Shown here: one piece after another, positions 2,690 through 47,299 of the stretch
Numbering within the stretch: position 1 is the stretch's first letter
How the letters are laid out: the number at the start of each line of letters is the position of its first letter
DNA from: Candidatus Methanophagales archaeon
GTDB taxonomy: Archaea > Halobacteriota > Syntropharchaeia > Alkanophagales > Methanospirareceae
Length of the DNA stretch: 63,847 nt
Assembly: GCA_003336485.1 (NCBI GenBank)
Contig: QENH01000199.1
Location: forward strand, 1-63,847
Direction of reading: 5' to 3'
Notes under the pieces: generated by a model
The model's database searches: none
The model's input: only the letters and a program-made list of their open reading frames with translations
Told to the model about the DNA's origin: nothing
Translations under genes and position numbers: made by a program

Positions 2690-2779
2690 TTTTGCGGGCT
2701 TTTTGATATAGCATTTTTACTTTGTGGAAGTTAATTGTTTAGATGAGAACATCTATTGTTATCCTAACAATACTATCGC

Positions 2780-3664
<885 letters not shown>

Positions 3665-3699
3665 GCAAATCTTCAGTCATTCTTGCCATTTACGCTCTT

Positions 3700-3957
3700 C
3701 TAACGTTTATCCATTTTGATCGTTTGTATTATATTGCTAGTGCTTTTTAGCCCATCTACGAGCCCATGAGCATAGTTTATACAGCCAAAAGCAGTGAAGA
3801 AGTCACCTTTTTTAAGGTAATACTTCGTATCTTCATAGTATCTCTTTGCGTTATCTACTACCTTTTCCTCATTGCCATCGAGCGATAAGGTCTCTAGCTC
3901 AGCGATGCTATCTTCAAAAAGTGCCACATCCTTCTTTATCCTGTCTGTTTCGTTCAT
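3700..3957 (-). CDS. DUF357-family small archaeal protein
   Basis: AKRYYEDTKYYLKKGDFFTAFGCINYAHGLVDGL matches the conserved DUF357 core (Y..D...yl..GD...A......YAhG.lD.l) as I recall it. Confidence 0.5.
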   Translation of the reverse strand: MNETDRIKKDVALFEDSIAELETLSLDGNEEKVVDNAKRYYEDTKYYLKKGDFFTAFGCINYAHGLVDGLKSTSNIIQTIKMDKR

Positions 3958-4116
3958 CCGCTCTTCTCCTTTTACAACTACAATAATAGATTGATTGATT
4001 GATTGATTGTCACAAGAAAAAATCGTAGAAGAGTTAATAAATTTGTATAACTTTTCTTTCTAACTAAGGAAAGATTTTTGATTATAGGGCGTGTAAGCAT
4101 CTAAAGCAGACCGAAA

Positions 4117-5277
4117 ATGTACCTGACAAAAGAGGAAGAGCGGATATACGAAGGAGAAGAAGGCTGGACGAAGAAGAAAGCGATGGAGATACTGGTAGCG
4201 ATCGGAGATATAAACAACGCTTCTGAGTTGATCCCAATAGCAAGCGCGCATATGTCCGGTGTATCGTACAAGACCATAGGGGATGCATTTGAATTCATAA
4301 ACCGTCTCGAAGGCAGGGTAAACGTAAAAAGCACTTTGAATCCGATGGGCATGGATAGGGAACGGTGGAATGAGATGAACATCACAAAAGAGTTCGCAGA
4401 TAAGCAAACTGCGGTATTCACAGCGTATAAAAATCTGGGCATCGCTCCCGTGTGTACCTGCATTCCCTATCTTCTGGAAGCTGGAGCGCCCCAAAAAGGT
4501 GTGCATATTGCATGGTCAGAATCATCAGCCGTTTTATATGCTAACTCGGTCCTCGGTGCGAGAACGAATATGGAAGGAGCACCTTCAGCTCTTGCTGCAG
4601 CGTTAATAGGAAAAACCCCTTTTTATGGGCTTCACCAAACAGAGAACCGAGCGCCCGAGATACGCATCTGTGCGAATTGTGACCTTGCAGATTCCGACTA
4701 TAGCGCACTCGGATTTTTAATTGGCGAACTCGTAGGCAATAGGATACCGCTAATAGAACTTCCATCTGTTCCAAGCAAAGACGAACTGAAGCATTTATCC
4801 GCAGCAATAGGTGCAACCGGGTCCGTGGGGCTGTATCATATAAGAGGACTAACACCTGAGGCATGGGACATACCCACTGAAAAAATAGTAGTAGAAGAAG
4901 GCGATGTGACTAAATTTTATGCCGTAGCAGAGGAAGCCGATGTAATCGCGATTGGATGTCCTCATTGCTCTTCTCTTGAACTCCAACAGATACATAAGCT
5001 ACTGCAGGTTGAGAGCAAAGGCAGGAAAGTGAAAAGGGATTTCTTTATATTTACCGCGAGAGCGATAAAGCAGCGCATGCAAGATCTGGTGATACAGATA
5101 GAGAGTTATGGCGTTAAGGTAATTTGCGATACATGTTTCGTGGTCTCACCTGCATTTGAGCAGTATAAGTGCGTATTGACAAACTCAGGTAAAATGATGA
5201 GATACGTGCCTCTTCTCTGTGGAGGTGCAAGAGTGAGATTGTGCAAGACAGAAGAGTGTGTTAGAGCGGCATTTTAA
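4117..5277 (+). CDS. aconitase X catalytic (large) subunit-like protein; probable phosphomevalonate dehydratase large subunit
   Basis: 386 aa. N-terminus MYLTKEEERIYEGEEGW...LIPIASAHMSGVSYKTIGDA is typical of the DUF521/AcnX catalytic domain. No small subunit gene is adjacent. Confidence 0.65.
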   Translation: MYLTKEEERIYEGEEGWTKKKAMEILVAIGDINNASELIPIASAHMSGVSYKTIGDAFEFINRLEGRVNVKSTLNPMGMDRERWNEMNITKEFADKQTAVFTAYKNLGIAPVCTCIPYLLEAGAPQKGVHIAWSESSAVLYANSVLGARTNMEGAPSALAAALIGKTPFYGLHQTENRAPEIRICANCDLADSDYSALGFLIGELVGNRIPLIELPSVPSKDELKHLSAAIGATGSVGLYHIRGLTPEAWDIPTEKIVVEEGDVTKFYAVAEEADVIAIGCPHCSSLELQQIHKLLQVESKGRKVKRDFFIFTARAIKQRMQDLVIQIESYGVKVICDTCFVVSPAFEQYKCVLTNSGKMMRYVPLLCGGARVRLCKTEECVRAAF

Positions 5278-5343
5278 AATCAGAGATGGTTTATATAATC
5301 CTATTTTTATTCTAACTTTAACTAACTTCAGTACAGAGATAAG

Positions 5344-6291
5344 ATGGCAAAAAGACACAGACCAAGGAGAGGGTCGCTTGCCTTTACACCAAGGAAGCGA
5401 GCAAGAAGTGAGATTTGTAGGATAAAGAGAGAAACGATAGTTGATGGAGGGAATATACAGGGCTTTGCCGGTTATAAAGCCGGGATGACCCACATTATTC
5501 TGACCGATAACGTCACCCATAGCATAACAAAGGGGATGGAAATATCTATTCCTGTGACAGTAATAGAGACGCCGCCTATGCGGGTAGAGGGATTTCGGCT
5601 TTATAAGACTACGCACTACGGTAAGCAGACGGTAACGGAGGCATATGACGACCTTAGTAAAATCGAAGAACGAATAAAGAGTAATAATACGGGACTTGAG
5701 TTGCGTATGATTTCTTCCACATTGCCCAAAGTTGTGAATGGCGTGCCGAAGAAGAAGCAGGAAGTGATGGAGACGCAGATGGGTGGCGATATAGGTAAAG
5801 ACCTAGAATACGCAAAAGAAATGCTAGGGAAGGAGATAACTGCGAAGGATATATTTAACGAAGGTGATTTTGTGGATGCCACTGCAGTAACCAAGGGTAA
5901 GGGCACACAGGGGCCCGTAAAAAGGTGGGGGATTACCATTCAGAACGCAAAGGCGCGAAGATCGGGAAAAGGCCGCCATGTTGGTGCTATCGGTGGTTGG
6001 ACGCCTCGTAGGGTGAGGTGGCGAGTACCGCAGCTTGGACAGACTGGGTATCAGCAGCGGACAGAATATAATAAGCGGATAGTGAAAATAGGCGAAAATG
6101 GGGAAGAGATAACGCCAAAAGGGGGTTTCCTGAATTATGGTGTCGTGAGAAATGATTATGTTCTACTAAAAGGCAGCGTTCCAGGACCTAAAAAGCGACT
6201 TGTGCGACTTTCTCGAGCTATTAGAGCCCCTCCTAAATTGGATGCGCCAGACATAGTGTATATAAGCAAGGAGTCACAACAGGGGGGATAA
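5344..6291 (+). CDS. rpl3: 50S ribosomal protein uL3
   Basis: MAKRHRPRRGSLAFTPRKRA..., ...TKGKGTQGPVKRWG...; first gene of the conserved archaeal L3-L4-L23-L2 cluster. Confidence 0.97.
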   Translation: MAKRHRPRRGSLAFTPRKRARSEICRIKRETIVDGGNIQGFAGYKAGMTHIILTDNVTHSITKGMEISIPVTVIETPPMRVEGFRLYKTTHYGKQTVTEAYDDLSKIEERIKSNNTGLELRMISSTLPKVVNGVPKKKQEVMETQMGGDIGKDLEYAKEMLGKEITAKDIFNEGDFVDATAVTKGKGTQGPVKRWGITIQNAKARRSGKGRHVGAIGGWTPRRVRWRVPQLGQTGYQQRTEYNKRIVKIGENGEEITPKGGFLNYGVVRNDYVLLKGSVPGPKKRLVRLSRAIRAPPKLDAPDIVYISKESQQGG

Positions 6292-6304
6292 TGAGACGAT
6301 AGAA

Positions 6305-7111
6305 ATGAAAGGAGAACTAAAGGGTAAAGTGGTGGACTTATCAGGTAACTTTGTAAGGGATATCGATCTTCCGCTACTATTCATGGAAGAATACAGGCCT
6401 GACTTGATAAAGAACGCAGTGCTGGCAATGCAATCAAATAGGCTGCAGCCAAAAGGTACAGACCTTTTATCAGGGCGAAAGACATCTGCAGAGAATTGGG
6501 GTCCTGGCAGAGCCGTTGCCAGAGTTCCACGTATAAAGGATGGACGGAGAGCGGCAAAGGTGCCTCAAGCGGTTGGCGGTAGAAGAGCACATCCGCCAAA
6601 AGTTGAGAAGAACCTGAAGCGGAAAATAAATAGGAAAGAACGGCAGAAAGCGATAAAATCGGCTATAGCAGCCGCTATAGATCCGGAACTCGTAAGAGGG
6701 CGTGGTCATAGGTTTAATACAGATGTAGAACTGCCGATTGTTGTAGAGGATTCGTTTGCAAGCCTTGAAAAGACCTCGGAGGTAACGGAATTTTTTAAAT
6801 CTGTGGGCGTGTGGGCAGACTTACTGCGTGCAAAAGGCCGTAAAATACGGGCAGGTAGAGGGAAGATGCGGGGCAGAAGGTATAAGACAAAAAAGAGCAT
6901 TTTGATTGTCATTTCGGGTGATGAGGGAACAGTAGAGTCCGAACATTCATCGAGTGATAAACGGATATTGAAAGGCGCGGAAAATTTACCGGGTGTTGAT
7001 ATATCATACGTGTCAAAGCTAAATGCTGAATTGTTTGCTCCTGGAACGCATCCGGGCAGATTGACCATCTGGACAGAATCTTCCATAAACAAGCTTGCCG
7101 CAATGGAGTGA
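6305..7111 (+). CDS. rpl4: 50S ribosomal protein uL4
   Basis: Position after rpl3. GPGRAVARVPRIKDGRRAAKVPQAVGGRRAHPPK motif region. Confidence 0.95.
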   Translation: MKGELKGKVVDLSGNFVRDIDLPLLFMEEYRPDLIKNAVLAMQSNRLQPKGTDLLSGRKTSAENWGPGRAVARVPRIKDGRRAAKVPQAVGGRRAHPPKVEKNLKRKINRKERQKAIKSAIAAAIDPELVRGRGHRFNTDVELPIVVEDSFASLEKTSEVTEFFKSVGVWADLLRAKGRKIRAGRGKMRGRRYKTKKSILIVISGDEGTVESEHSSSDKRILKGAENLPGVDISYVSKLNAELFAPGTHPGRLTIWTESSINKLAAME

Positions 7112-7117
7112 TAAGAA

Positions 7118-7366
7118 ATGGTGCTAAAACATATACTTCCAAGTGAAAAAGCAACTTTGATGATAGATGCGGAGAATAAGCTCCAGTTTGTTGTGGATTT
7201 ACGAGCTAATAAGATAGAGATAGAGCGAGAAGTGGAAATAGTATTTGAGACACCGGTGAAAAGCGTGAGGACAATGATATCCTCGAAAGGGAAGAAGAAA
7301 GCGATAATAGAATTTGTGGATGAAGGCAAGGCAAAAGAAGTAGGTACTTCACTGGGTATATTATAA
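7118..7366 (+). CDS. rpl23: 50S ribosomal protein uL23
   Basis: 82 aa, located between rpl4 and rpl2. [36 protein letters not shown]. Confidence 0.93.
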
Positions 7367-7383
7367 TAGTAGAAATAAGAAAA

Positions 7384-8115
7384 ATGGGAAAAAGGATAAT
7401 AGCGCAGCGGAGAGGGAAAGGGTCTTCCACGTTTAGGGCACCTTCGCATCGTTATAAAGGTAATCTCGAACACGTGAGGGTGAAGAAGAATGAGACGGTA
7501 TCCTATAGAATCGTGGAAATAGTACATGATCCTGCAAGGAGTGCCCCTATAGCACTTATAAAGCCAAAAGACGAGAACGGGGAGGGTGTTGAGCGTTTTA
7601 TAGTTGTACCTGAGGGTCTTGGCGTAGGTGACGAGGTATGTTACGGTGAATCAGCCGAGATAAAAGCAGGCAATACAATACCAATTCGGAACATTCCAGA
7701 AGGAATCATGATTTGCAATTTAGAGTTAAGATTAAATGACGGTGGTAAGATCGCAAGGTCTTCAGGTGATTGTGCAACGTTGTTAGCACATGAGCATGAG
7801 ACCGGAAGATCACAGATCCTATTACCTAGTGGGCAGAAGAAATGGCTATCATCAGACTGTTTTGCAACTATCGGTGTAGTTGCAGGTGGTGGACGTACAG
7901 AAAAGCCGTTTGTAAAAGCGGGAAAGAAATATCATAAGATGAAGGCACGTGCAGCAAAATATCCGATAGTGCGAGGAGTAGCTATGAATCCCGTTGACCA
8001 TCCTTTTGGTGGTGGCGCGCATCAGCACGTTGGTAAGCCCAAAACACCAAGCCGAGGTGCACCACCGGGAAGGAAAGTTGGGAGCATAGCGGCAAAACGA
8101 ACCGGAAAGAGGTGA
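7384..8115 (+). CDS. rpl2: 50S ribosomal protein uL2
   Basis: [26 protein letters not shown]...[22 protein letters not shown]. Confidence 0.97.
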
Positions 8116-8119
8116 TCTA

Positions 8120-8536
8120 ATGGCGAAGAAGAAATCTAAAACAACATTGAAGAAGAAGGAAGAAGAATTCAAATATAGAGGGTATACGATGGCAAAGCTA
8201 AAGAAGATGAAGCTTGAAGAGTTGGCCAATTTTTTATGTGCAAAACAGCGAAGGAAATTAAAGCGGACTTTGCGACCTGAAGAAGAGAAACTGCTGGAGG
8301 CAGTTAGTTCAGGTCAGGATGACATAAAGACACATCTAAGAGATGCTATCGTTTTGCCAAGTATGATCGGGAAGAATATAGGGATACACAATGGAAAAAG
8401 CTTTGAATACGTTGAGATAAAGCCAGAGATGATAGGACATTATTTGGGTGAGTTTGCATTGACACGAAAGAAAGTATCACATGGAGCTGCGGGAGTAGGG
8501 GCGACAAAGTCTTCAAAGTATGTACCGCTGAAATAA
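8120..8536 (+). CDS. rps19: 30S ribosomal protein uS19
   Basis: FKYRGYTMAKLKKMKLEEL...IGIHNGKSFEYVEIKPEMIGHYLGEFALTRK. Confidence 0.96.
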   Translation: MAKKKSKTTLKKKEEEFKYRGYTMAKLKKMKLEELANFLCAKQRRKLKRTLRPEEEKLLEAVSSGQDDIKTHLRDAIVLPSMIGKNIGIHNGKSFEYVEIKPEMIGHYLGEFALTRKKVSHGAAGVGATKSSKYVPLK

Positions 8537-8541
8537 GTGAA

Positions 8542-9012
8542 ATGGGTCGGGTAAAATATTGCACGGAAAACGTAATTGATCCGGAGACGACAGCTAGGGC
8601 CATGGCTTATGAACTCCATATATCGCCTAAGCATGCGAATGAAGTGTGCAGAGCGATAAAGGGTAAGAATGTAGGGGCTGCAGAGATATATCTGGAGGAT
8701 GTGCTTGGAATGAAGGTGGCAGTCCCATTCAAGCGCTATAAGAGGAAAGTTGGACATCGTAGGGGGCTAAATAAATGGTATGCGGGGAGATATCCCGTAA
8801 GGGCAACCGCGGCGATATTAAAATTGCTACGTGATGCAAAGGGCAGTGCTGAGTACAAAGGGCTTGACCTTGATCTAATGCGTGTGTGGCATGTGGCCAC
8901 GAAGAAGGGACGTACAATTCATGGAATAATGCCTCGTGCTTTTGGTCGTGCTACGCCCAAGAATACGGAGACCGTCACTGTTGAGATAGTGCTAAAGGAA
9001 GTGGGAGGCTAG
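8542..9012 (+). CDS. rpl22: 50S ribosomal protein uL22
   Basis: ARAMAYELHISPKHANEVCRAIKGKNV...PFKRYKRKVGHRRG; conserved position. Confidence 0.95.
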   Translation: MGRVKYCTENVIDPETTARAMAYELHISPKHANEVCRAIKGKNVGAAEIYLEDVLGMKVAVPFKRYKRKVGHRRGLNKWYAGRYPVRATAAILKLLRDAKGSAEYKGLDLDLMRVWHVATKKGRTIHGIMPRAFGRATPKNTETVTVEIVLKEVGG

Positions 9013-9021
9013 TAGAAGAAA

Positions 9022-9918
9022 GTGATAGAGAAGATATTTGTGGAAGAAGGGATAAAGAAAGTTCGGATGGACGAATATTTCCAGAAAGAGTTAGAAAGAG
9101 CGGGTTATGGGGGTATGGATATAAAAAGGACCCCTATGGGCACGCAGATAACGGTCCATGTTGAGAAGCCGGGAATGATAATAGGTAAGAATGGTAAGCG
9201 AATAAAAAAGGTGACCGATGAAATAACAAAGAGACAAGAGCTGGATAATCCACAAATAGATGTTCAACCTATAGCAGCGCCTGAGCTAAGTGCGCAATTG
9301 ATGTCTAATAGACTTGCAAAGCTAATAGAGCGAGGTTGGCATTTCAGAAGGGCTGGGCGGTCAACTCTGCAACGTATAATGGGTGCAGGAGCACTTGGCT
9401 GTGAGATCACCATGTCTGGAAAGCTTAGAGGACCGCGTGGCCGTGTGGAGAAGATGGTAGAGGGCTATATAAAACACTGTGGTTCTGTAGCTGAGGAAAT
9501 AGTGGACAAGGGGTATTCTATAGCGAAGAAAAAGACAGGCGTTATAGGTGTCATGATTTGGATAGTAGCGCCCGATGCGAATATACCCGATTCCTTTCGC
9601 ATGGATGTTGTAAAAGTGGCGGGTTTGGAAGAAGCAAAGGTCGAAGAGGCAAAGGTTAAAGAAGCAAAGGTGGAAGAAGCAAAGGTGGAAGAAGCAAAGG
9701 TGGAAGAAGCAAAGGTCGAGGAGGTAAAGGTGGAAGAAGTAAAGGTGGAAGAAGTAAAGGTTAAAGAAGCAAAGGTGGAAGAAGCAAAGGTGGAAGAAGC
9801 AAAGGTTGAAGAGGTAAAGGCTGAAGAAGTAAAGGTGGAAGAAGCAAAGGTCGAGGAGGTAAAGGTGGAAGAATCGAAATTAAAAGTTGAAGGAGCGAAA
9901 GAGAAAGAGGAAGAATGA
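9022..9918 (+). CDS. rps3: 30S ribosomal protein uS3 with long C-terminal (EEAKV)n extension
   Basis: GTG start. KH-domain core ([33 protein letters not shown]), then 17 pentapeptide [10 protein letters not shown] units. Confidence 0.95.
9626..9872 (+). repeat. 15-bp tandem repeat (about 17 units, consensus gaagaagcaaaggtg) inside rps3
   Basis: Read directly in the sequence. Units differ mainly at the A/V codon and at wobble positions. Confidence 0.95.
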
Positions 9919-10127
9919 GTATATTTAGGATGGAAGAGATAAGAAGGATGGGCGAACAGGAGCGGCAGGATGAATTGGAGAGTTTGGTGAGTGATTTGTT
10001 ACATGAACGAGGGATGATAGCCACAGGTGGAGCGCCTGATAATCCTGGTAGGATCGGAGAGATAAGAAAGGCAATAGCGAGGATAAAAACCGTTCAAGGA
10101 GAAAAGGGAAGAGAAGAAGAGAAATGA
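9915..10127 (+). CDS. rpl29: 50S ribosomal protein uL29
   Basis: 70 aa, 4-nt overlap with rps3. [24 protein letters not shown]... is typical of L29. Confidence 0.93.
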
Positions 10128-10429
10128 ACATGGAGGTTTGTCCTAAATGTGGATTGCCAAAAGACTTATGCATATGCAAGGAGATCGCGAAGGAGCAGCA
10201 AGTAGTAAAAGTATTTACAGTGAGACGGAAATTCGGTAAATTTGCTACGATAATAGAGGGAATGGATGGGAAAGAAGTGGACTTGAAAGCGCTGTCGAAG
10301 GAGTTAAAGTCGATATGTGCGTGTGGTGGCACGGTAAAAACAGGCTGCGTTGAATTGCAGGGAGACCAGAAAGAACTAGTAAAGAAGACGCTGCGCGAAA
10401 TGGGCTATACGTTAGGGAGTAAAAGATAA
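10124..10429 (+). CDS. translation initiation factor aSUI1 (eIF1 homologue)
   Basis: N-terminal [13 protein letters not shown] knuckle plus the SUI1 core ([14 protein letters not shown]...[12 protein letters not shown]...ELQGDQ). Confidence 0.9.
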
Positions 10430-10702
10430 ATGATGAACATAACTCAGCACAATATATTGCAGCACGAACTGATAGGGTTGCAAGCAGAAATTGGGGCGAG
10501 TACGAATAATAGCATGATGGGGCTCTGTGGGGCGGTGGTTGACGAGACGCGGAATATGCTGGTTATAGAGACAGAGCGAAAGAATGAGAAGTGGATAGCA
10601 AAAGCAGGAAACACATTCATTTTTGAGTTGGGCGGTGGAGTACGTGTGCGAGTAAAAGGTGATCGGATCGTTTCAAGACCCGAAGATAGGATAAAGAAGT
10701 GA
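10430..10702 (+). CDS. rnp1: RNase P protein component 1 (Rpp29/Pop4)
   Basis: HELIGLQAEIGASTNNSMMGLCGAVVDETRNMLVIE; canonical archaeal position between SUI1/L29 and S17. Confidence 0.85.
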   Translation: MMNITQHNILQHELIGLQAEIGASTNNSMMGLCGAVVDETRNMLVIETERKNEKWIAKAGNTFIFELGGGVRVRVKGDRIVSRPEDRIKK

Positions 10703-10737
10703 ATATGCAAGGTTACATATTATGAGGTATTATTAAG

Positions 10738-11061
10738 ATGCGAAACATAGGAATAGAAGTCAAGAATCCTGATAAGGACTGTGAAGATGTCAATTGTCCG
10801 TTTCATGGCACGTTGCCGGTAAGAGGACAGGTTTTAGAAGGCATGGTGATAAGTGCTAAAGCGCAGAAGACAGTTGTTGTTTTGAGGACATACCTAAAAA
10901 AGATAAGGAAATATGAGCGGTATGAACCTCGGCGATCGAAGATTTCTGCACATAATCCCTCCTGTATAAATGCAAAAGTGGGGGATGTGGTGAAGATAGC
11001 GGAATGCAGACCACTGAGTAAGACGAAAAGTTTTGTGGTGGTAGAAAAGCGAGCATCATGA
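10738..11061 (+). CDS. rps17: 30S ribosomal protein uS17
   Basis: [34 protein letters not shown]...[20 protein letters not shown]. Confidence 0.95.
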
Positions 11062-11103
11062 TTTTTTTATATTTAACGCTAAAAGACATATCGAGGTAGT
11101 AGT

Positions 11104-36836: not shown

Positions 36837-37728
36837 GGCAACCGCAGAAGAACCTCTTATTAGTGACGAGATCGCCGCTGACGAAACGTTCCTTTCACTT
36901 GCTTTTTTTTTCGTACCGTTTCTTCTCTTTCATCCATTATCACCCCCTCTTACTACATCTATTATGTTGATCGGGTATAAAATCACGTCGACACATGTGA
37001 TTAGGTCCAATAATTAGATCAACGGCGTTTAATGCACAAAATAGTTCTTCAATAATATCCACAGTAAAGGATTGATCATGCATTGCATATTATAGTAAAA
37101 TAAATCGATATAAAAAGGTTTTCGCGGTTAGCGTTTTTCACGCGGTTTTTATATACGGGAACGCACAAATATATCTTTGCTCTTGGAGGGGGAAGTAGCC
37201 TAACGGGAGAAGCACCTGGAAACAATTCATATACTTACTGCATCTCAGAAGATGAATGGAACGAGTTCGAGTCGATTCCTTGTAAAATAGGGGAGTATGT
37301 GGGGAACAGATTAGGGTTTGCCGATGGGCATATCTATTATAGTTCCAGTCCACCGCTTGCGGATTTGATAAGGGGCAATGCAGGGCTGCGAACTGCTGTA
37401 GGGGATGGTTTTGTTAGGCCGTTAGTGGATCTTACGCAGAGATTAGTAGAATGAGCGGAAATGGGGTTTAGAGGGTGACAAAAAGAATGGATAAGAAAAA
37501 AGTATGGTTACTCTTTCGTGTAGCCTTTAGGAAGCAAGTATCTCATTTTTAGACGGTGATTGAGTAACGTCCCATGAGACACGCACTTTATCACCGGCTA
37601 TATGGGTATGTAAAGCACAGGGCTTTGAAGAATTTCGTAGATTGGAATAATGCAAAGTTTTTAAAAGCGTGGATGCTCTTAAACTAAATGATACTTATAA
37701 AGGGTAAAAAGTGAAATATATAGGGTAA

Positions 37729-40700
37729 ATGACTTACACAAAAGAACAAGGAAAGCAAAAGATTAAAGAACTCGTTGAGCGATTCAGGTATAATCTTGAT
37801 GTTTACAAAAAGTCAGCGTATAACGAAACACAAGTAAGGCGAGAATTCATTGACCCTTTCTTTGAAGCCTTGGGCTGGGACGTGAGCAATAAACAAGGCT
37901 ATGCAGAGCAATACAAAGATGTAGTTCACGAGGATGCAATAAAAGTAGGGCATTCAACAAGAGCACCTGATTACAGTTTCAGGATTGGGGGACAGCGGAA
38001 GTTCTTTGTCGAAGCGAAGAAACCGGCAGTGGACATAAAAGAGGACGTCGCCCCATCATATCAACTGAGACGGTATGCTTGGAGCGCGAAACTGCAGTTA
38101 TCTATTGTAACGGATTTCGAGGAGTTCTCGGTATTCAACTGTCAGATGAAGCCAAATCCAACGGACAAGCCCGGCTTAGGTCGGTTTGCATACTATACGT
38201 TTGACGAGTATCTCGATAAGTTTGACGAGATCTACGACGTGTTCTCAAAGGAAGCGGTACTCAAGGGCAGTTTCGATCGGTACGCGCAATCTACAAAGGG
38301 CAAGAAGGGCACTGCGACAGTAGATAGCGAATTCTTAAAGGAGATAGAGAGCTGGCGTGAGCAGCTGGCTAAGAATATCGCGCTAAGGGATCCTAATGTG
38401 AGTATATACGAGTTAAACTATTCGGTACAGAAGTTGTTGGATCGCATAATCTTCCTGCGGATTTGTGAAGATCGCGGCATTGAACCTTATGGGCAGTTGC
38501 GGACACAAGCTGAATCCAGTGACGTGTACATGCATTTGCTGAACCATTTTAGATTGGCGGAATCGAAATATGATAGCGGGATATTCGATTTCGATAGCGA
38601 CGGGATAACGCCTGCCTTGACAATAGACGACAAGGTCTTGAAGACGATCATTCAGGATCTGTATTATCCGAAGTCGCCGTATGAGTTTTCTGTGCTCGGG
38701 GTTGAGATCTTGGGCAATGTGTACGAGCAGTTTCTGGGTAAGGTTATCCGGCTGACGGCAGGGCATCAGGCGAAGGTGGAGACGAAGCCGGAAGTGAAAA
38801 AGGCGGGTGGGGTGTATTACACGCCTCAGTATATCGTTGAATATATCGTGGAGAATACGGTAGGTAAGTTGATTGCGGGAAAGACGCCGGAAGAGATTGC
38901 ACATATAAAGATTCTGGATCCGGCATGCGGTTCTGGTAGTTTCCTTATTGGTGCGTATACGTATCTGCTGCGGTATCATCGGGATTGGTACGTTAGTAAC
39001 AAACCGAAGAAGCATAAAGAGGCGGTGTTTCAAGTTAAAGCGGATGAATGGTACTTAACAACGGCTGAAAAGAAGCGGATTCTTTTGGATAATATCTTTG
39101 GCGTTGATATAGACTCACAGGCGGTAGAAGTGACGAAGATGAGTCTGCTACTGAAGGTGCTGGAGCACGAGAGCCGGGAGAGTATAGATCAGCAGATGAA
39201 ATTGGGACTGGAGGGTGTGCTGCCGAATCTGGGTGATAATATCAAGTGCGGGAATTCGCTTATCGGGCCGGAATATTATGATTTGGGGCAGCAGGGGTCT
39301 CTTTTTGACGAGGCGGAGATGAGGCGGGTTAATGTGTTTGATTGGAATGACGATGTGAAAGGGTTTGGGGAAATCTTAAAGAAAGGGGGGTTTGATTGCG
39401 TTGTGGGGAATCCGCCGTATGTGCGGATTCAGACCATGAAAGAGTGGGCTCCAACAGAGGTGAAATTTTACAAGAAGCACTTTGTAGCAGCTAGCAAAGG
39501 CAATTATGACATCTATGTCATCTTTGTAGAACGGGCACTTCAATTACTCAATGTTCGAGGGCTGATGGGTTACATATTGCCTCATAAGTTCTTCCAGGCC
39601 AAGTATGGCCAACCTTTACGCGAGTTGACTGCAAGGGGGGAGTACCTGGGCAAAATCGTTCACTTTGGCGACCAGCAGGTATTTGATGGAGCAAGTACTT
39701 ACACATGTCTACTTTTTTTGGACCGGGCGGGTAACAAGAGCTTCCGCTACGTCAAAGTTCGCGACTTAAACGCTTGGCGGATTAGCGGCGATGCAACCGA
39801 TGGCAAAATCCATGCGGATAAAGTAAAGGGGGGTGAATGGAACTTTGTTGTAGGTCCAGAAGCATCTCTGTTTGAACGAATGAGGGAGATACCAATAAAG
39901 TTGGGAGATGTAGCGATACGTATGTTTCAGGGTTCGATTACAAGCGCTGACACTGTTTATCTGTTCAAAGAATATCAAAACGAAAACGAAGATATTGTTG
40001 ACGTTTGGTCGAAAGAACTAAACGCATGGATCAAAATTGAACGGGCCGTTCTCAAAACAGTCGTTCGGAGCGGGAATATCAGCCGCTACTCAGCCAATCC
40101 TACTGCTCTTGTACTTTTTCCCTATGAAGTCCAAGAGAGCAATGCACGTCTTTATACACCGACGGAGATGCAAGAGCAATATCCTCTAGCTTGGGCGTAT
40201 CTTAAGCAAAATAAAAGGCTGCTTGAAGGGCGAGAGAAAGGAAAGTTCAAGGATCTGCAATGGTACCGCTTCGGGCGCACTCAAAATTTAGGCATGTGGG
40301 AACAGCCTAAGTTAATGATCCCATACATGATAACAAACCTTGCTGCTTACTACGATAAAAACGATAACTTTTACTTCATCAATGTCACAACGGGTGGATA
40401 CGGCATCACAATTGACGAAACGATGTTTAGTTATCTGTATTTGTGTGGATTATTAAATTCTCAATTGTTAAACTTTTACCTTAAGCAAGTGACTACCAAC
40501 TTCCGAGGTGGCTATTTTGCAGCAAATAAGCAGTTCATCGAACAACTGCCAATCCTCACTATCAACTTTGACGATCCTGCTACAAAAGCACAGCACGATA
40601 AACTTGTAGCTTTGGTTGAGAATATGCTTGAACTGCAGAAGAAATACCACGATACGAGAATGGAGCGCGATAAAGAGCTTTATGGACGGCAGATAAAGAT

Positions 40701-40785
40701 TGTTGATACGCAGATTGACAGACGGGTTTATGAGTTGTACGGGCTGACTGAGGAGGAGGTGAAGATTGTGGAAGAGAATCTTTAA
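37729..40785 (+). CDS. Type IIG restriction-modification enzyme (N-terminal PD-(D/E)xK nuclease + Eco57I-like N6-adenine methyltransferase + specificity domain)
   Basis: Nuclease-like APDYSFRIGGQRKFFVEAKKP. MTase motif I ILDPACGSGSFLIGAY and motif IV VVGNPPYVRIQ. C-terminal ...VYELYGLTEEEVKIVEE tail is typical of this family. 1018 aa, intact. Confidence 0.85.
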   Translation: MTYTKEQGKQKIKELVERFRYNLDVYKKSAYNETQVRREFIDPFFEALGWDVSNKQGYAEQYKDVVHEDAIKVGHSTRAPDYSFRIGGQRKFFVEAKKPAVDIKEDVAPSYQLRRYAWSAKLQLSIVTDFEEFSVFNCQMKPNPTDKPGLGRFAYYTFDEYLDKFDEIYDVFSKEAVLKGSFDRYAQSTKGKKGTATVDSEFLKEIESWREQLAKNIALRDPNVSIYELNYSVQKLLDRIIFLRICEDRGIEPYGQLRTQAESSDVYMHLLNHFRLAESKYDSGIFDFDSDGITPALTIDDKVLKTIIQDLYYPKSPYEFSVLGVEILGNVYEQFLGKVIRLTAGHQAKVETKPEVKKAGGVYYTPQYIVEYIVENTVGKLIAGKTPEEIAHIKILDPACGSGSFLIGAYTYLLRYHRDWYVSNKPKKHKEAVFQVKADEWYLTTAEKKRILLDNIFGVDIDSQAVEVTKMSLLLKVLEHESRESIDQQMKLGLEGVLPNLGDNIKCGNSLIGPEYYDLGQQGSLFDEAEMRRVNVFDWNDDVKGFGEILKKGGFDCVVGNPPYVRIQTMKEWAPTEVKFYKKHFVAASKGNYDIYVIFVERALQLLNVRGLMGYILPHKFFQAKYGQPLRELTARGEYLGKIVHFGDQQVFDGASTYTCLLFLDRAGNKSFRYVKVRDLNAWRISGDATDGKIHADKVKGGEWNFVVGPEASLFERMREIPIKLGDVAIRMFQGSITSADTVYLFKEYQNENEDIVDVWSKELNAWIKIERAVLKTVVRSGNISRYSANPTALVLFPYEVQESNARLYTPTEMQEQYPLAWAYLKQNKRLLEGREKGKFKDLQWYRFGRTQNLGMWEQPKLMIPYMITNLAAYYDKNDNFYFINVTTGGYGITIDETMFSYLYLCGLLNSQLLNFYLKQVTTNFRGGYFAANKQFIEQLPILTINFDDPATKAQHDKLVALVENMLELQKKYHDTRMERDKELYGRQIKIVDTQIDRRVYELYGLTEEEVKIVEENL

Positions 40786-40812
40786 ATATAGATACAACAA
40801 TCTAACTAAAAG

Positions 40813-41727
40813 GTGATAACGATGGATTTGAAAGATTTTATATACCTCGATATAGACCGTGTTCGATCTTTTACTTCACAACTTTTCGAAGGCATTCCGG
40901 AGACCAGTAATTCAAAAAATGGAAAGGAACAAGATATTAAAGGAAAATTTAAAGGCGGTGTGCCTCTTTTGGCAAGCGGTGGAGTTGAAGGAGGTTTATT
41001 GTTACGCCAAGAAAAAACTGAAACAAAAAGCCTACAACATTATATTTACGTGTTATTTGAAAATAAACTGAATGATTTGAAAAAACTTAAAGTATTGAAC
41101 GAAAAGTTTGATAAAAAAAATTGGGTTGATGGTATTGTAAGAAAGGGCTTAAAAGAGTCGGAATTTATCAAAATTACAGCAAATGTTAAAATATTTGACT
41201 ATGAATATTTAGACACTGTATTCAAAATGGTTAAAGAACTTCCAGACACGGTTGCTGAATTGACTTCGATGAGTTTAACCAAAGATAAAAAGAAACAGAA
41301 AAAAAGAGAAATGCTAAAAGAGATGGGTGCTCAGGATTGGGATAGTACTATAAGGTCAATATCAAAATTCATAGACACAATGTACAAAGGGATCATTAGC
41401 TTAAAAATATATCCTGTAGGTACGGATTCTGCACCGTATCTTTTAGGCAGACTTAATAAAAACTACCTGCAATATGACCGGGAAACATTATTATTTCAAT
41501 ACGGTACAGAACCAAATCAAAAGTGGACGATAGTTGGGCAAATATCTACGATCCCTGACAAAAAGGAGACTACGGTAGAAGAACCACAACTAAAGGATGA
41601 ATATAATATGCTTGATGTGGAGAATATAATGGAATATATACTAAAAATTATGGTAAGTACGGGACTGAAATTTTCTGTGTCATATCCTTCAATTGGTATT
41701 ATTCCATTGGCAATATATAGAGTTTGA
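40813..41727 (+). CDS. hypothetical protein, no recognisable domain (defence-island cassette 1)
   Basis: Intact 304-aa ORF. The likely start is ATG 40822, after AAAGGTG. Visibly more A/T-rich than the RM gene. MDLKDFIYLDIDRVRSFTSQLFEG... shows no motif I can assign. Confidence 0.6.
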   Translation: MITMDLKDFIYLDIDRVRSFTSQLFEGIPETSNSKNGKEQDIKGKFKGGVPLLASGGVEGGLLLRQEKTETKSLQHYIYVLFENKLNDLKKLKVLNEKFDKKNWVDGIVRKGLKESEFIKITANVKIFDYEYLDTVFKMVKELPDTVAELTSMSLTKDKKKQKKREMLKEMGAQDWDSTIRSISKFIDTMYKGIISLKIYPVGTDSAPYLLGRLNKNYLQYDRETLLFQYGTEPNQKWTIVGQISTIPDKKETTVEEPQLKDEYNMLDVENIMEYILKIMVSTGLKFSVSYPSIGIIPLAIYRV

Positions 41728-41916
41728 AGGTTGTTGAAGACGTTATGCATACGAATGCTCGAACTACGGAAGAAATACCACGATGCGAGAAGGGAACGCG
41801 ATAAAGAGCTTTATGAACGACGGATACGAATTGTTGATGTGCAGATTGACCGGTTGGTGTATGATTTGTATGGGCTGACGGAGGAAGAGATTGGGATTGT
41901 GGAAGGGTATGAGTGA
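41728..41916 (+). other. start-less duplicate of the Type IIG gene 3-prime tail (copy B)
   Basis: MLELRKKYHDARRERDKELYERRIRIVDVQIDRLVYDLYGLTEEEIGIVEGYE versus the RM C-terminus MLELQKKYHDTRMERDKELYGRQIKIVDTQIDRRVYELYGLTEEEVKIVEENL. It begins directly after the TGA of cassette 1, in the same frame. Confidence 0.8.
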
Positions 41917-42067
41917 AGTAGTTATGCAATTCGCACAGTTATTGGGTGCATCCTCTTTGTCGCGGTGGAAACTTGAGACGAGAAAAGCTTATATGTAAAG
42001 AAAGCTAAAAACAGTTGGTGATTGAGAATAGAAAATGGGGGCGAGGGTGATGGAGGTTGGAAGTGCT

Positions 42068-43825
42068 ATGCCAGTAAATATTAATCCAATATTTCCGCTT
42101 TCTTACAATCTCGCTGATGGGAAAAAAAAGTATGTTCTATTTTGCGGAGCAGGAGTATCAAAAGATGCTGGTATTCCTACCGGCTGGGAAATCCTCTTAG
42201 AGACAGTAAGACATATTAGAACTCAAAAAGAGGGAGAGAACAAAGAATAAACTGACAAGGAAATGGAAACGTACTATGAAGAAAATTTTGAAGACTCTAC
42301 TTATTCAGATATCATTGAAAGTTTATTTCCTTCAACAGAGGAACAAAGAGCGTTTTTAGAGAACTTCTTTGAGAACAAAGCACCCGGAAAGGCTCATAAA
42401 TTGATTGCAGAGTGGGTAAAAGCAGAATTAATCCGATTTATCATCACAACGAATTTTGATTCTTCAATCGAACATTCGCTAGATGATGTAGGATTAAGAG
42501 GGAAATATTCGGTTATTACAGATGGAGCGCAAGTCTTGACAAGCAAACCCTGGCATCTTGTAGAGAATTGCCGCATTTATAAAGTCCACGGCACCATCGA
42601 ACAAGGAGAAATAAAGAATACCCAAAAAAATTTAGAGAAATTCGATAACGATCTTGAAAATGAGTTCTTGGACATTATCGAAAGACACGGCGTAATTGTG
42701 TTAGGTTATGCGGGTAATAAAGAGGATAAGGCCGTGATGGACTGTTTCAACAAAAGGAGATTTAAAGGATACACTCTTTATTGGACTGTTCACGACAATC
42801 AAATTAAAGACAATGTAAAAGAGTTAGTAGAAGAAAGGCAAGATGGCAGGTTTATTCATATAGAAAGCGCTTCTGATTTTTTGGAAGATGTTTTGAATAG
42901 AGTCGAAATTGCAAGAAAAGGAACGGAACAGACATCGGAGGCGGTTGCACAAGTCCGGTTTAAGAATCTAATTACCTCCGGCTCAGATGTTGAGATAAGA
43001 CAGACCATTGATGAAGAAAGAAGAAAACTCAAAAAATATTTTGAAACTATTTTAGATGAAGTAGATGAAGAAGATTATAAATCTCTGTGGGATGGCTACT
43101 TAAAGCTATTCAATTATTCGTTTAACTTTTTGAGTTTGGTCGATCAGATAATTAAATACCAAAATAAATATTGGGAAAACATATTGCCGGTATTTGAAGA
43201 AATCCAGTCTTTGAATAAAAATCGAAGTCAACATGGCAAAGAGGGGTTGGTGAACTACTATTTCTTTACTTTATTGGAAATGATAGGTGGGATTTTATTA
43301 GAAAATAAGGCTTTCCAGCTACTTCATTCATTATTAGCGGTAAAAAAATTGAATTACACAAAGGATGGAATGGAACCTATTTTAGATTGGGATACTTATG
43401 CGCATTTCATCGAAGTAAAAAATGATGAGGAGGCGAAAGAGACAGGGCAGAACTGGATTGTTCCTCGCATGCATTACCTATGTCAATTAATAGAAAGTCA
43501 AGAGATTCCGTTTGAATATGATTTGAGGGGACGAATAGTTGATGTTGATTTACTATACTTTGTGTATCCTGTTATACATCCTATGGGTCGTTATTCTTAT
43601 TATTGGTCTCCAGAATCAAGCATTTATTCAAGGGGGGATTCTTCGGAGTTATTTAAAAAGATAAAATATGACGGAACGTTTGGAACCGCAGTAGCCAATG
43701 AGTTATTCAATATAAGTTATGAGGAACTTGTTGAAAAATTAGGAGAGGCAAAAGAGAGTTTTAACACGAACGTAATAGGTAGCTTTCATACACCCTGGGT
43801 AGGTAATCCGTTTGAGGATTTTTGA
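42068..43825 (+). pseudogene. SIR2-like (SIR2_2-type) NADase-domain protein with uncharacterised C-terminal domain, interrupted by an in-frame TAA
   Basis: FCGAGVSKDAGIPTGW lies in ORF 42035..42250. TAA at 42248-42250. The same frame continues with ...FIITTNFDSSIEH...IYKVHGT...VLGYAG (ORF 42263..43825). ATG 42068 follows GGAGGT. Confidence 0.7.
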
Positions 43826-43828
43826 TGA

Positions 43829-44062
43829 ACCGATGAAAATATACCTCCAACTGAAAAAGCAAAGCACGATAAACTTGTGGCTCTGGTTGAGAACATGCTC
43901 GAACTGCAGAAGAAACACCACTATGCCAGAATGGACCGCGATAAAGAGCTTTATGAGCGGCAGATAAAGATGGTTGATGCGCAGATTGACAGGTTGGTTT
44001 ATGAGTTGTATGGGCTGACGGAGGAAGAGGTGAAGGTGGTGAAAGAGAGTGTGATTAGATGA
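43829..44062 (+). other. start-less duplicate of the Type IIG gene 3-prime tail (copy C)
   Basis: PPTEKAKHDKLVALVENMLELQKKHHYARMDRDKELYERQIKMVDAQIDRLVYELYGLTEEEVKVVKE versus the RM C-terminus DDPATKAQHDKLVALVENMLELQKKYHDTRMERDKELYGRQIKIVDTQIDRRVYELYGLTEEEVKIVEE. It follows TGA-TGA of the SIR2 ORF, in frame. Confidence 0.85.
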
Positions 44063-44238
44063 ATTGTAAGCAGAATAAAGTATATATAAATGAACAGGAG
44101 ATATATAAAGTGTGGCAGATCATGGTGGAAGTGTACATAGGCTTCGTGCTTACGCGCGGTGTAGGGTGACTTTGGAGCGAATGAAGAATATAACGGCGGC
44201 AGTACGACTATAGAGTCGCTTAGGTAGATGACGTAATT

Positions 44239-44902
44239 ATGAAAATTCGAAAATTCGAAATAAGGAATTTTCGCAATCTTCGTAATATCGAGGTATATCC
44301 TGCACATACTACGATATTTATTGGAGAAAATAATGCAGGTAAATCAAATCTGTTATATGCGCTACGATTATTGCTTGATCCCGAGGCAAAAAGGCTTGAA
44401 TCTGGAATTTCCGAAGAGGATATTAACGATTTGGCAAAAGATGTCACAAATCTTTTATCGCCCCTCATTCCAAGTGGTCAAGGTGAAGTTTCAATAGCAG
44501 TTGCCACTGAAGACCCTTCACAATTAGTCAAGGGACTTCGTCTTAATCTTAAACGTCAATCAGACTACAGAGCATATGATATGTCTCGGCATGGAACAGG
44601 CTTACAAAACCTCGTTCTAATAGCAATGTTTAGACATAGAATATCTACCGCAGGAGTAAGTAATTCAACCAATTCTCGCCATAGAGGAGCCTGAGGCTCA
44701 TTTGCACCCGCAGGCTCAGCGTTGCTTACTCAAGGATTTAGAGAAAATTGGCGGACCGGTACTTTTGACAACACACTCGCCAGGTATAGTAGAGTGCTCA
44801 GATCCTTTAGGACTTATCCGTCTGACTTCAACGGATCAAAATCAATTTTCAGGATTCATGGGAAACCGCACTTGGACTTGCTATTATAGAACTTGCACAT
44901 AA
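44239..44902 (+). pseudogene. decayed OLD-family / AAA_15-type ABC ATPase
   Basis: MKIRKFEIRNFRNLRNIEVYP...FIGENNAGKSNLLYAL (Walker A). After a frameshift, ILAIEEPEAHLHPQAQ (Walker B-like) and LLTTHSP. Only ~220 codons in total, and no TOPRIM region is recognisable. Confidence 0.6.
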
Positions 44903-44930
44903 TCCCAGTTCAAGCCTATTTTTACATAGG

Positions 44931-45521
44931 GTGTTAGCGGCAGTTGAAGAAGGTGGTCTGGCATTTCGGCTTGGAGACGAAGATGCTCTTGATGAAGCCT
45001 TAAGAATTCGTGATAAACTTAAAATATCTGAAAACTTAGAATTTAATCCAAAGAAAGTACACAAAATTTTAGATGCAGCGGGCATGGAAGAGATTATACA
45101 AAAAGTATCAGCGGGTATTAGTGATGCTCGACAAAGGATAACGAATCTAAGAAAGATGATAGAAGATATATCTTCGGAGGCTGGAAAACATGGTATTGAT
45201 CTTCTTCAGGTAATAGATCGATTCTTAGGTCACGGAGCAATTCAAATTATATCTGGTCATCAGTCAAAAGGTGGTGAATTCGATATTGTATTTTTTATTG
45301 GTTTAGAAGATGATGTACTTCCCGATTATCGAGCTCACAACAATGATGAGAAACTTGCTGAGGAGCGGCGAATCTTTTATGTTGGACTAACAAGGGCTCG
45401 CAAAGCAGCATATTTGACAAGCGTAACTCATAGACCCGTGCAGGACTGGGTGAAAAATGCTGTTCCATCAAGATTTATAGGGCATATTCCTTATGAATGT
45501 TTCAGTGAGGTTACTCTATGA
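44931..45521 (+). pseudogene. C-terminal fragment of a UvrD/PcrA-type helicase
   Basis: ISGHQSKGGEFDIVFFIGLEDDVLPDYRA...EERRIFYVGLTRARKAAYL = helicase motifs V/VI region. The N-terminal ATPase core is absent. Confidence 0.6.
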
Positions 45522-45601
45522 ACCCATTTCAAAGCTATAAAAACCCCTGAGAAAACGTGGAAAATGGAAAACTTTTTATATAGATTTTTTTTGGTATATA
45601 T

Positions 45602-46213
45602 ATGATGTATGATCATTCACAGACAATAGGTTTCTTTGATTTGGAAACACAGTATTTGTTTGAAGATATTGAACCACGATGGAAACAGATGAGGTGGCGG
45701 GAAAAATCAACAATTCGAGACACGTTGACAAAAAAGCTGCGATTAGCTGTCGCTGGTTTAATGGATCATGAAGGGGATGTAAAATTTTTTACTGAGGACA
45801 ATATTGAAGAACTATTTAATGCATTAGAATCTGTTGATCTGATTATTGGACATAATCTATTGATGTTTGATTACATAGTCTTGAGTTCATATTATTCCAG
45901 CATGGATGTAGTAGAAAAATTTCAAGAAAAGACCTTCGATACCCTGAAAGAATTAGAAAAGGTAACAGGCATATGGACTGGACTAGAGGACCTGGGACAG
46001 CTAAATTTGCGTAGCCACAAGTCTGAAGATACGTTAAAAATTCCTGAGATGTGGCGTGACGGGAAGCATGACGAGGTTAAGGCGTATCTTCGAACAGATT
46101 TGGAAATCACAAAAGGAATCTACGATTATGGTAAAACAAGAGGAGAACTCAAGTATACCTATAAAGAATATGGAGAAATAAAAGGTGTAAGAACTGTAAA
46201 GGTGCATTGGTAA
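45602..46213 (+). CDS. DEDDh-type 3-5 exonuclease (RNase H-like fold)
   Basis: Exo I FFDLET, Exo II IIGHNLLMFDYIVL, Exo III HDEVKAYLRTDLEITKGIYDY. Confidence 0.65.
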   Translation: MMYDHSQTIGFFDLETQYLFEDIEPRWKQMRWREKSTIRDTLTKKLRLAVAGLMDHEGDVKFFTEDNIEELFNALESVDLIIGHNLLMFDYIVLSSYYSSMDVVEKFQEKTFDTLKELEKVTGIWTGLEDLGQLNLRSHKSEDTLKIPEMWRDGKHDEVKAYLRTDLEITKGIYDYGKTRGELKYTYKEYGEIKGVRTVKVHW

Positions 46214-46905: not shown

Positions 46906-47140
46906 CGTACAAATTCTCTATCGAGTTTCATAATGCTTCTAGGTCTAAGCCAAATATTTAAAAACTGTCGGTACACTGATTGGATATTAACTAAATATGC
47001 TAACGGTCCAAATCGGTTATATTCGGCTGGTCTTGCTAGTTCAGGGGGAATTTAAACAAAACTTCATATCATGAGAATAATATCAGTACAACTTGAAAAG
47101 GAAAAGTTTAAATATATCCCGGTTCAAGTATATAACAATC

Positions 47141-47299
47141 ATGCCCGAAGTAATCGAATGCGTATATGAGGACGGGGTGCTTAAACCATTCGGGAAGATA
47201 AATCTGAAAGAAAATACGAGAGTCCGGGTTATTCTTAAGGAATCCGTAGTTGAGAAAACCTTTGGCTTTCTTAAAGTAAGCAAGGACGAAATAGCGTAA
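47141..47299 (+). CDS. DUF104 (AF2212-like) antitoxin-family protein, no cognate PIN toxin adjacent
   Basis: MPEVIECVYEDGVLKPFGKINLKENTRVRVILKE is the family signature. Confidence 0.7.
   Translation: MPEVIECVYEDGVLKPFGKINLKENTRVRVILKESVVEKTFGFLKVSKDEIA

Follow-up and report, generated by a model that had tools for sequence, protein, structure and literature searches.

What is the role of a gene without an assignable motif that is retained intact among the genes of an antiviral defence hotspot? The question is raised by an open reading frame (ORF) at positions 40813-41727 of contig QENH01000199.1 (assembly GCA_003336485.1), a stretch of 63,847 nucleotides from a Candidatus Methanophagales archaeon (ANME-1, anaerobic methanotrophic archaea) that is referred to below as the window. 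The original prediction took the ORF for an intact orphan gene encoding a candidate defence component of 304 residues, which may act alone or together with the SIR2-like protein encoded downstream. Our analysis places the gene in the DUF6414 family and shows that it travels as the sole gene of a cassette bounded by copies of the 3' end of a Type IIG restriction-modification (RM) gene. Taken as a whole, the reading that we prefer, namely a functional archaeal DUF6414 gene in a self-contained, mobile cassette flanked by RM tails, the product of which would act against viruses on its own, has in our estimate about an even chance of being right.

An intact archaeal member of the DUF6414 family

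A profile search matched the protein over its full length to the Pfam family DUF6414 (PF19952; E 2.7e-28, 100 bits against a cut-off of 25, with residues 6-302 aligned to profile positions 1-283 of 283), and a further match was obtained to phrog_9699 (E 2e-17). A database search recovered 30 close homologues (64-98% identity), all of which, where the source is named, derive from ANME-1/Methanophagales, and a few distant bacterial homologues at 23-29% identity. All homologues carry a precomputed PF19952 assignment. The family comprised 1,630 clusters at 50% identity in an exhaustive profile search (E <= 1e-3), and among the 150 clusters listed nearly all were single-domain proteins of 280-390 residues. 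Judged by its sequence, the ORF is a diverged archaeal (ANME-1/Methanophagales) member of DUF6414 and not the orphan it had been taken for; it was the profile-search check put forward with the original prediction that overturned this label. Scans of the window protein with NCBIfam and PADLOC returned nothing meaningful and a species-genome search with the single window protein returned three genomes only, while tblastn with a Firmicutes DUF6414 homologue gave no matches among plasmids and one Vibrio prophage in a phage collection.

The ORF is uninterrupted on the + strand and counts 304 codons when read from the GTG at 40813, as in the ORF listing; at the local base composition a stop-free run of 301 codons has a probability of around 2e-12. 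The true start is the ATG at 40822, because the GTG lies inside a Shine-Dalgarno-like motif (GGTGA, 40812-40816, 5 nt ahead of the ATG) and the homologues mostly count 301 residues. The gene thus spans 40822-41727 and encodes a protein of 301 rather than 304 amino acids. The sequence upstream of the ATG reads ...CTTTAAATATAGATACAACAATCTAACTAAAAGGTGATAACGATG; the majority of the close full-length homologues have the same length of 301 residues, and the aligned ones start with MDLKDF, MNVKDF or MNLKDF. The leader of the gene (40781-40821, + strand), read directly from the sequence, combines the GGTGA motif with a TATA-like element of the archaeal type (TTTAAATA, 40781-40788), which shares bases with the RM stop codon, and may serve as a putative promoter.

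Between five diverged copies from independent loci, which are 82-92% identical to the window protein at the amino-acid level, the ratio of non-synonymous to synonymous substitution rates (dN/dS) was 0.22-0.49, with no indels and no stop codons. The gene is therefore real, intact and under purifying selection, and it persists next to SIR2 and Gabija genes that decay. It had been described correctly as one of the few intact genes of the island. Comparison of 146 family representatives revealed four invariant residues (S16, Q20, G24 and P295) and eleven that are nearly invariant (F6, Y8, D10, E67, L71, D73, E80, D126, G239, A297 and Y299). The window protein keeps F6, Y8, D10, S16, Q20, G24, E67, L71, E80, D126, G239, P295, A297 and Y299, and departs at D73, which is a His. 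Further departures of the ANME-1 proteins occur at the well-conserved positions N138 (Lys), E281 (Gly) and E290 (Ser).

The gene had been described as more A/T-rich than its flanks, which is clear against the RM gene (GC content 0.329 versus 0.452) and does not hold against the SIR2 gene (0.362); the whole window has a GC content of 0.43. The protein is rich in lysine (38 in 301 residues, isoelectric point 8.8) and devoid of hydrophobic helices (Kyte-Doolittle mean over 19 residues at most 1.23), as had been noted. An AlphaFold2 model built from the 146-sequence alignment (pLDDT 85.3, pTM 0.80) predicts an N-terminal strand and helix, a disordered loop (residues 25-63), an alpha/beta body with a long helical hairpin, and a closing C-terminal strand. 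The Gly-rich stretch to which attention had been drawn is present, and falls within the predicted loop. Foldseek searches of the PDB with two models gave no significant match (best E 2.0 with the better model), and the better model likewise retrieved nothing significant from BFVD (best E 0.38). Faint matches to an oligonucleotide/oligosaccharide-binding (OB) fold, to FemA and to LysRS were dropped, as the TM scores were 0.2 or less and no E-value was below 0.3. Sequence-profile searches of the PDB, with alignments of 15 and 146 sequences, yielded nothing or spurious matches to designed proteins. The structure check proposed earlier thus gave a confident model without a relative in the PDB or BFVD and without an assignable motif, in line with what had been seen by eye, and the modelled fold has no detectable relative among solved or viral structures.

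A single-gene cassette between RM gene tails

The gene directly upstream encodes an intact Type IIG RM enzyme of 1018 residues (37729-40785, + strand), recognized by Pfam (Eco57I, N6_Mtase, MmeI_Mtase, HSDR_N and TaqI_C) and by PADLOC (REase_MTase_IIG, E 8.4e-272, profile 6-1004 of 1011). Repeat searches and tblastn/blastn showed that the last ~200 nt of this gene are present three times in the window, all on the + strand. The first copy (40575-40785) is the true 3' end of the RM gene (~60-70 codons), which served as the reference and into which an in-frame upstream ORF of 958 codons leads. The second copy (41734-41916) is a free-standing remnant of 183 nt between the DUF6414 and SIR2 genes; together with the junction GGTTGTTGAAGACGTTATGCATACGA, which was delimited by alignment of the DNA junctions, it occupies 41728-41916, and it is still open as an ORF of 61 codons (41731-41916). 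The third copy (43846-44062), also free-standing, is 87-88% identical to the first and again contains an open 61-codon ORF (43877-44062). The DUF6414 gene had been placed between the RM and SIR2-like genes; that order stands, with the addition that the RM remnant also lies between it and the SIR2 gene.

The same bracketing was found elsewhere. RM-tail copies lie on both sides of DUF6414 in 10 of the 10 ANME-1 loci that were fetched via the protein and in one further locus (L124), and the outer neighbours of the cassette differ from locus to locus. Five distinct ANME-1 arrangements could be discerned, in each of which DUF6414 constitutes a single-gene cassette; with 951-1002 nt (951 nt in the window) the cassette has room for this gene alone. 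The end of the upstream repeat and the leader (AATCTTTAAATATAGATACAACAA) accompany DUF6414 in L001 and L005, and a similar version does so in L008. Likewise, the junction behind the stop codon (GGTTGTTGAAGACGTT...ATGCTCGAAC) accompanies the gene across loci, and the junction peptide LKTLCIRMLEL is common to the second window copy and to the copy downstream of DUF6414 in L001. As the junctions travel with the gene while the outer neighbours differ, the crossover is to be placed in the conserved repeat core. The arrangements recur in independent assemblies (L001 equals L002, L005 equals L006, and L008, L009 and L010 are the same), and the window is identical to Logan contig L142 over 3,020 nt. 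These data show that the DUF6414 gene moves, without partners, as a single-gene cassette within RM-anchored arrays that are rich in defence genes.

This organization bears directly on the proposal that DUF6414 and the downstream SIR2-like protein together constitute a two-gene defence system. In its favour, DUF6414 and SIR2 are AT-rich neighbours with a common orientation, and sensor proteins are frequent companions of SIR2 effectors. However, the RM-tail repeat divides them into separate cassettes. The SIR2-like gene (42035-43825, + strand; PF13289, and PDC-S65 in PADLOC) is moreover inactivated: two ORFs in the same frame, of 71 and 520 residues, match positions 6-68 and 75-586 of the 592-position PDC-S65 profile, and an in-frame TAA (42248-42250) splits the gene after residue 71, while DUF6414 is intact. 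The intact homologue in L059 (584 residues, 82% identity over 585 amino acids) has a Tyr at the position of the TAA, and the independently assembled contig L142 carries the same split. In other loci four other neighbours follow DUF6414 and SIR2 never does; the genes found there include a UPF0175/DUF3368 toxin-antitoxin pair, a gene for an uncharacterized protein of 287 residues and a pair encoding uncharacterized proteins of 155 and 317 residues. Conversely, L059 contains the SIR2/PDC-S65 cassette without DUF6414. The context data thus largely refute a SIR2 pairing, which we consider highly improbable, and this part of the original prediction is not supported.

The RM-tail arrays of ANME-1

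The wider distribution of the repeat was established by scanning metagenomes for the repeat core and then applying tblastn, which yielded 131 loci with copies. In 50 of these, two to six copies were present, in every case on one strand. After removal of redundancy 43 arrays remained (examples are the window at 40575-44062, L001 at 620-11086, L005 at 8791-11091, L091, L027 and L134). The cassettes number 70, are 1,160 nt long at the median and mostly comprise one gene or two; together they encode 61 protein clusters, and 66 of them are oriented in the same direction as the repeats. The copy that is attached to a full RM ORF came first in 15 of the 43 arrays and later in none. The cargo includes GajA/OLD, SIR2 (PDC-S65), PDC-S11, PDC-S70, three HEPN proteins, Schlafen/AlbA_2 (SLFN_AlbA_2), a Pycsar-type TIR protein, DUF4268, DUF2441 and many proteins without any match. 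The description of an intact gene of obscure biochemistry inside a defence hotspot was therefore apt, given arrays with Gabija, SIR2, HEPN, Schlafen and TIR cargo. Cargo genes are AT-rich (GC content 0.33-0.40) compared to the host-like repeat tails (0.45-0.47).

The repeat copies evolve as coding sequence (dN/dS 0.21-0.23, dS ~0.41). RNAalifold on 18 copies gave -5.3 kcal/mol, without compensatory pairs and without a conserved hairpin, and an attC-like structure was rejected for lack of covariation. Recombinase and integrase families were absent from the flanking genes, over ~10 kb on each side, in the window, L001, L005 and L008, and Rfam and tRNA scans of the island returned no matches. Given that neither a recombinase gene nor a structured site was found, we infer that the cassettes are exchanged by homologous recombination. 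An origin of the repeated 3' ends by a diversity-generating retroelement was dropped, since the copies are numerous, enclose cargo and differ in a way that fits coding divergence (dN/dS ~0.2).

In several ways the arrays resemble those of integrons: the cassettes are co-oriented, they are divided by a repeated separator, the array is polar from one anchor, defence genes abound in its diverse cargo, and a given cassette is encountered at differing positions. They differ from sedentary chromosomal integrons with defence cassettes in that they are archaeal and have no adjacent integrase or other recombinase, and in that the separator is not a structured attC site but derives from coding sequence, namely the 3' end of a Type IIG RM gene. 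A 2026 paper describes variable hotspots of ANME-1 that are rich in RM and toxin-antitoxin genes, but does not describe the RM-tail architecture (PMC13385816), and no description of arrays delimited by RM tails was present in the literature searched. The array therefore appears to be undescribed and to be a more novel feature than the DUF6414 gene.

Recombination within the RM-tail repeat would shift a cassette between positions and between genomes, and the result would be a polar array in which the RM gene is followed by repeated units of cargo gene and RM tail, the cargo being mostly defence. Carried further, this leads to the broader proposal of a so far undescribed gene-capture platform of ANME-1 that operates via RM-tail recombination and has DUF6414, as a stand-alone antiviral protein with a fold without known relatives, among its cargo. 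The last ~60 codons of the RM gene would then be the recombination site of a polar, integron-like array without integrase, and each cassette would supply its cargo along with a replacement RM tail, such that the RM gene stays intact and defence genes accumulate behind it. Within its family, other members of which depend on membrane or ClpB-like partners, the solo DUF6414 protein would then be the most reduced version. We rate this combined proposal as possible, with a chance somewhat short of even. The arrays look like a homology-based analogue of integrons, and the context may in the end matter more than the gene: they pool known defence genes (Gabija, SIR2, HEPN, Schlafen, TIR) with dozens of uncharacterized ones that are candidate archaeal immune genes, and they might explain the 'highly variable genomic hotspots' of ANME-1 (PMC13385816).

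The position of the gene behind the RM gene suggests another role, that of an accessory of the Type IIG enzyme, either as a guard that is fired by viral inhibition of the RM system or as a regulator of restriction. DUF6414 lies directly 3' of an intact RM gene in the window and in L008-L010, and one cassette further in L005/L006, and its promoter-like leader overlaps the RM stop codon. Defence genes that back up an RM system from within its locus are an established pattern, as exemplified by PrrC in EcoprrI. Yet the cassettes of all 61 protein clusters are RM-linked, and because every cassette type shares the linkage it reflects the insertion site and not a specific partnership. In addition, the cassette of L001/L002 is the fifth in its array, without an RM gene in the preceding 10 kb, and no RM gene occurs as operon neighbour in any of the seven bacterial and phage DUF6414 loci described below. 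An RM accessory is for these reasons improbable.

It was also considered whether the protein belongs to the mobility machinery of the arrays, as an unrecognized recombination or DNA-binding protein. In favour of this are the lack of a recognizable recombinase near the arrays, the basic character of the protein (pI 8.8), the faint OB-fold-like Foldseek matches and the fact that DUF6414 forms the largest cassette cluster in the sample. The cluster size is, however, a sampling artefact, as 10 of the 12 members come from loci fetched via the DUF6414 protein; only two loci found via the repeat carry the gene (L124, and a partial copy in L064) and most arrays lack it, and cassette turnover in genomes without DUF6414 already seems to be the rule. 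With bacterial homologues residing outside such arrays and the OB-like matches being insignificant (E > 0.6), this possibility is close to negligible.

Some further features of the repeats were observed. The free-standing RM tails (41731-41916 and 43877-44062 in the window, and those in L001, L005 and L008) are mostly still open, with a dN/dS of ~0.21, and their sequences suggest that they either were the working C-terminus of an RM gene until recently or continue to be translated; in a copy of L001 (10913-11086) a stop codon and a gap of two codons are present. In several cassettes the ATG of the cargo gene and the stop codon that ends the RM-tail ORF before it overlap (ATGA, for instance ...GAAGAAAAATGACTGAC...), which suggests translational coupling or operon-like expression from the RM transcript.

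DUF6414 genes outside ANME-1

The family has been connected to antiviral defence via the Dodola system, composed of DolA and DolB (Millman et al. 2022; described in PMC11514479, PMC12322248 and bioRxiv 10.1101/2024.10.26.620412). Dodola protects Bacillus subtilis and Streptococcus thermophilus from phages by a mechanism that is unknown (same sources). According to a review it consists of a DUF6414 protein, which is DolA, and a ClpB-related protein (bioRxiv 10.1101/2024.10.26.620412); the name Dodola is not present in the text of the Millman preprint. The window gene and Dodola thus have the DUF6414 component, as given by the review, and a neighbourhood of defence genes in common. They differ in that the window gene is archaeal and constitutes a single, repeat-flanked cassette, without an adjacent ClpB-like gene and without a PADLOC match. 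No Clp or AAA+ match, as expected for a ClpB-like ATPase (DolB), was obtained within 37729-46213, and no ClpB-like gene lies beside DUF6414 in the ANME-1 loci L001-L010. As PADLOC recognizes none of the DUF6414 proteins that were scanned, the window protein is not DolA in the strict sense and the locus is not a canonical Dodola system.

A different composition was encountered in the seven bacterial and phage DUF6414 loci that were examined, which include loci of Psychrobacter, Vibrio, Chryseobacterium, a Vibrio phage and Neobacillus. In six of the seven (L011, L013, L014, L015, L136 and L141) the gene is preceded by one for a protein of 111-147 residues with four transmembrane (TM) segments. 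In five of these six (L011, L013, L014, L136 and L141) a peptide of 42-62 residues with one TM segment is encoded between the two, its gene overlapping or abutting the DUF6414 start; the peptide was not called in L015 (Chryseobacterium), though the 4-TM protein is there. The unit of 4-TM protein, 1-TM peptide and DUF6414 is annotated by no library, and Pfam and PADLOC scans of the membrane partners were empty; the same scans gave no matches for recurrent uncharacterized neighbours of 287, 317 and 348 residues. The DUF6414 proteins of these three-gene operons are 20-29% identical to the window protein, align with it over the full length and have the invariant residues in common, and they too occur in mobile or defence settings. 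In Vibrio P2/186-like prophages the unit sits after the CI repressor gene in the cI lysogeny operon, in one Vibrio prophage HNH, AAA_15 and GmrSD genes adjoin DUF6414, and in Neobacillus HicAB does so. The ANME-1 cassette differs in having neither membrane protein and in the substitution of residues that hardly vary among the proteins with partners. In the window no membrane partner is encoded upstream, as the ATG at 40822 is preceded by nothing but the RM stop codon and a leader of 36 nt.

The bacterial units are in one respect reminiscent of the lambda RexA/RexB pair, since they combine a soluble protein of ~300 residues with a small 4-TM protein and are co-transcribed with the prophage repressor; the likeness is an analogy of architecture and concerns the bacterial relatives only. 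Homology to Rex was rejected (hhalign probability 0.15% to RexA and 0.06% to RexB). There is thus no sequence homology between the two, the window protein has no significant match in the PDB, and its gene lacks a membrane partner.

A putative antiviral function

A role in defence is the best-supported reading of the DUF6414 gene and a probable one, because the family is reported to provide DolA of the validated Dodola system and because all ANME-1 copies reside in arrays with defence cargo. DUF6414 would be the constant core of antiviral modules the partners of which vary, being two small membrane proteins in most of the bacteria and prophages examined and a ClpB-like ATPase in Dodola; we regard it as the infection-responsive core because it is constant while the partners change across the family. 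The ANME-1 form would have lost its adjacent partner and most likely acts alone, triggered by infection and halting the growth of the cell or the virus in the manner of abortive infection. It must then carry an effector activity of its own or use a host factor that is supplied in trans. The residues likely to matter are F6, Y8, D10, S16, Q20 and G24 in the N-terminal strand and helix, E67 and E80 in helix 2, D126, and P295, A297 and Y299 in the C-terminal strand, and the flexible, Gly-rich loop of 40 residues may take part. This mechanism, a 'solo abortive-infection switch', is put forward tentatively and is on balance doubtful; the antiviral function, solo action, trigger and biochemical activity of the protein are all putative.

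Several points weigh against a stand-alone antiviral gene. The link between DolA and DUF6414 rests on the review and not on a comparison with a DolA sequence. PADLOC (v2.0.0) gave no match for the window protein at E <= 0.1, in a scan that lacked a DolA positive control, nor for the other DUF6414 proteins (145 and 10 more, two of which were scanned twice). The profile and Foldseek searches revealed neither a catalytic motif nor a known fold nor a domain fusion, which leaves the protein without a biochemical handle. In three of the seven bacterial and phage contexts defence neighbours are missing, and as membrane partners accompany DUF6414 in six of the seven the solo form could be a non-functional leftover. 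Finally, most loci stem from metagenomes assembled from short reads, where repeats can lead to chimeric joins; the agreement of independent assemblies argues against such chimeras.

The most pertinent alternative is accordingly that of a decaying or non-defence passenger, which would be either what is left of a three-gene, membrane-linked module after the loss of its partners or a gene that serves a mobile element in another way, like anti-defence or virus-virus exclusion. It is favoured by the 4-TM protein and the 1-TM peptide of the bacterial and phage loci (six and five of the seven, respectively), neither of which is present in the ANME-1 cassette, and by the substitutions of the ANME-1 clade (D73 to His, N138 to Lys, E281 to Gly and E290 to Ser). 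The adjacent cassettes in the window are pseudogenes, and the family has a PHROG entry as well as prophage members. On the other hand, the dN/dS of 0.22-0.49 and the 301 codons that are intact in all five diverged copies point to selection, which argues against a solo DUF6414 gene as a non-functional leftover, and most full-length ANME-1 homologues keep the length of 301 residues along with the invariant residues of the core. The position in a prophage lysogeny operon is, moreover, typical of exclusion and defence genes and would in itself imply a defence-type role. We consider a passenger rather unlikely and retain the reading of a functional, stand-alone antiviral gene. Since DUF6414 is a large family without known fold, motif or mechanism, this partner-less form, which is under selection, provides the simplest test case for the core of the family.

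Neighbouring cassettes and flanks

The third cassette of the window (44239-46213, + strand) contains a degraded Gabija system and an exonuclease gene, as identified by PADLOC fragment matches and phrog_403. What is left of Gabija is a GajA fragment of 151 residues (44239-44694) and a GajB fragment of 196 residues (44931-45521), followed by an intact gene for a DnaQ-like exonuclease of 203 residues (45602-46213; phrog_403, DNA polymerase exonuclease subunit, E 3.5e-11). In L134 (176-4689) an intact GajA (579 residues), an intact GajB (595 residues) and a protein of 202 residues constitute one cassette between repeats, the gene content of which suggests a three-gene Gabija variant with an exonuclease.

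An inverted and diverged copy (71-75% complementary) of the segment 45536-45856, which covers the region upstream of the DnaQ-like gene and its 5' part, is located just upstream of the RM gene (36990-37160, - strand), and the whole island is thus bracketed by partial inverted repeats. This copy may have been left behind by an inversion or by an earlier cassette. Directly downstream of the array, a small AF2212-like protein (PF01954) is encoded at 47093-47299, a member of a family that is commonly annotated as antitoxin.

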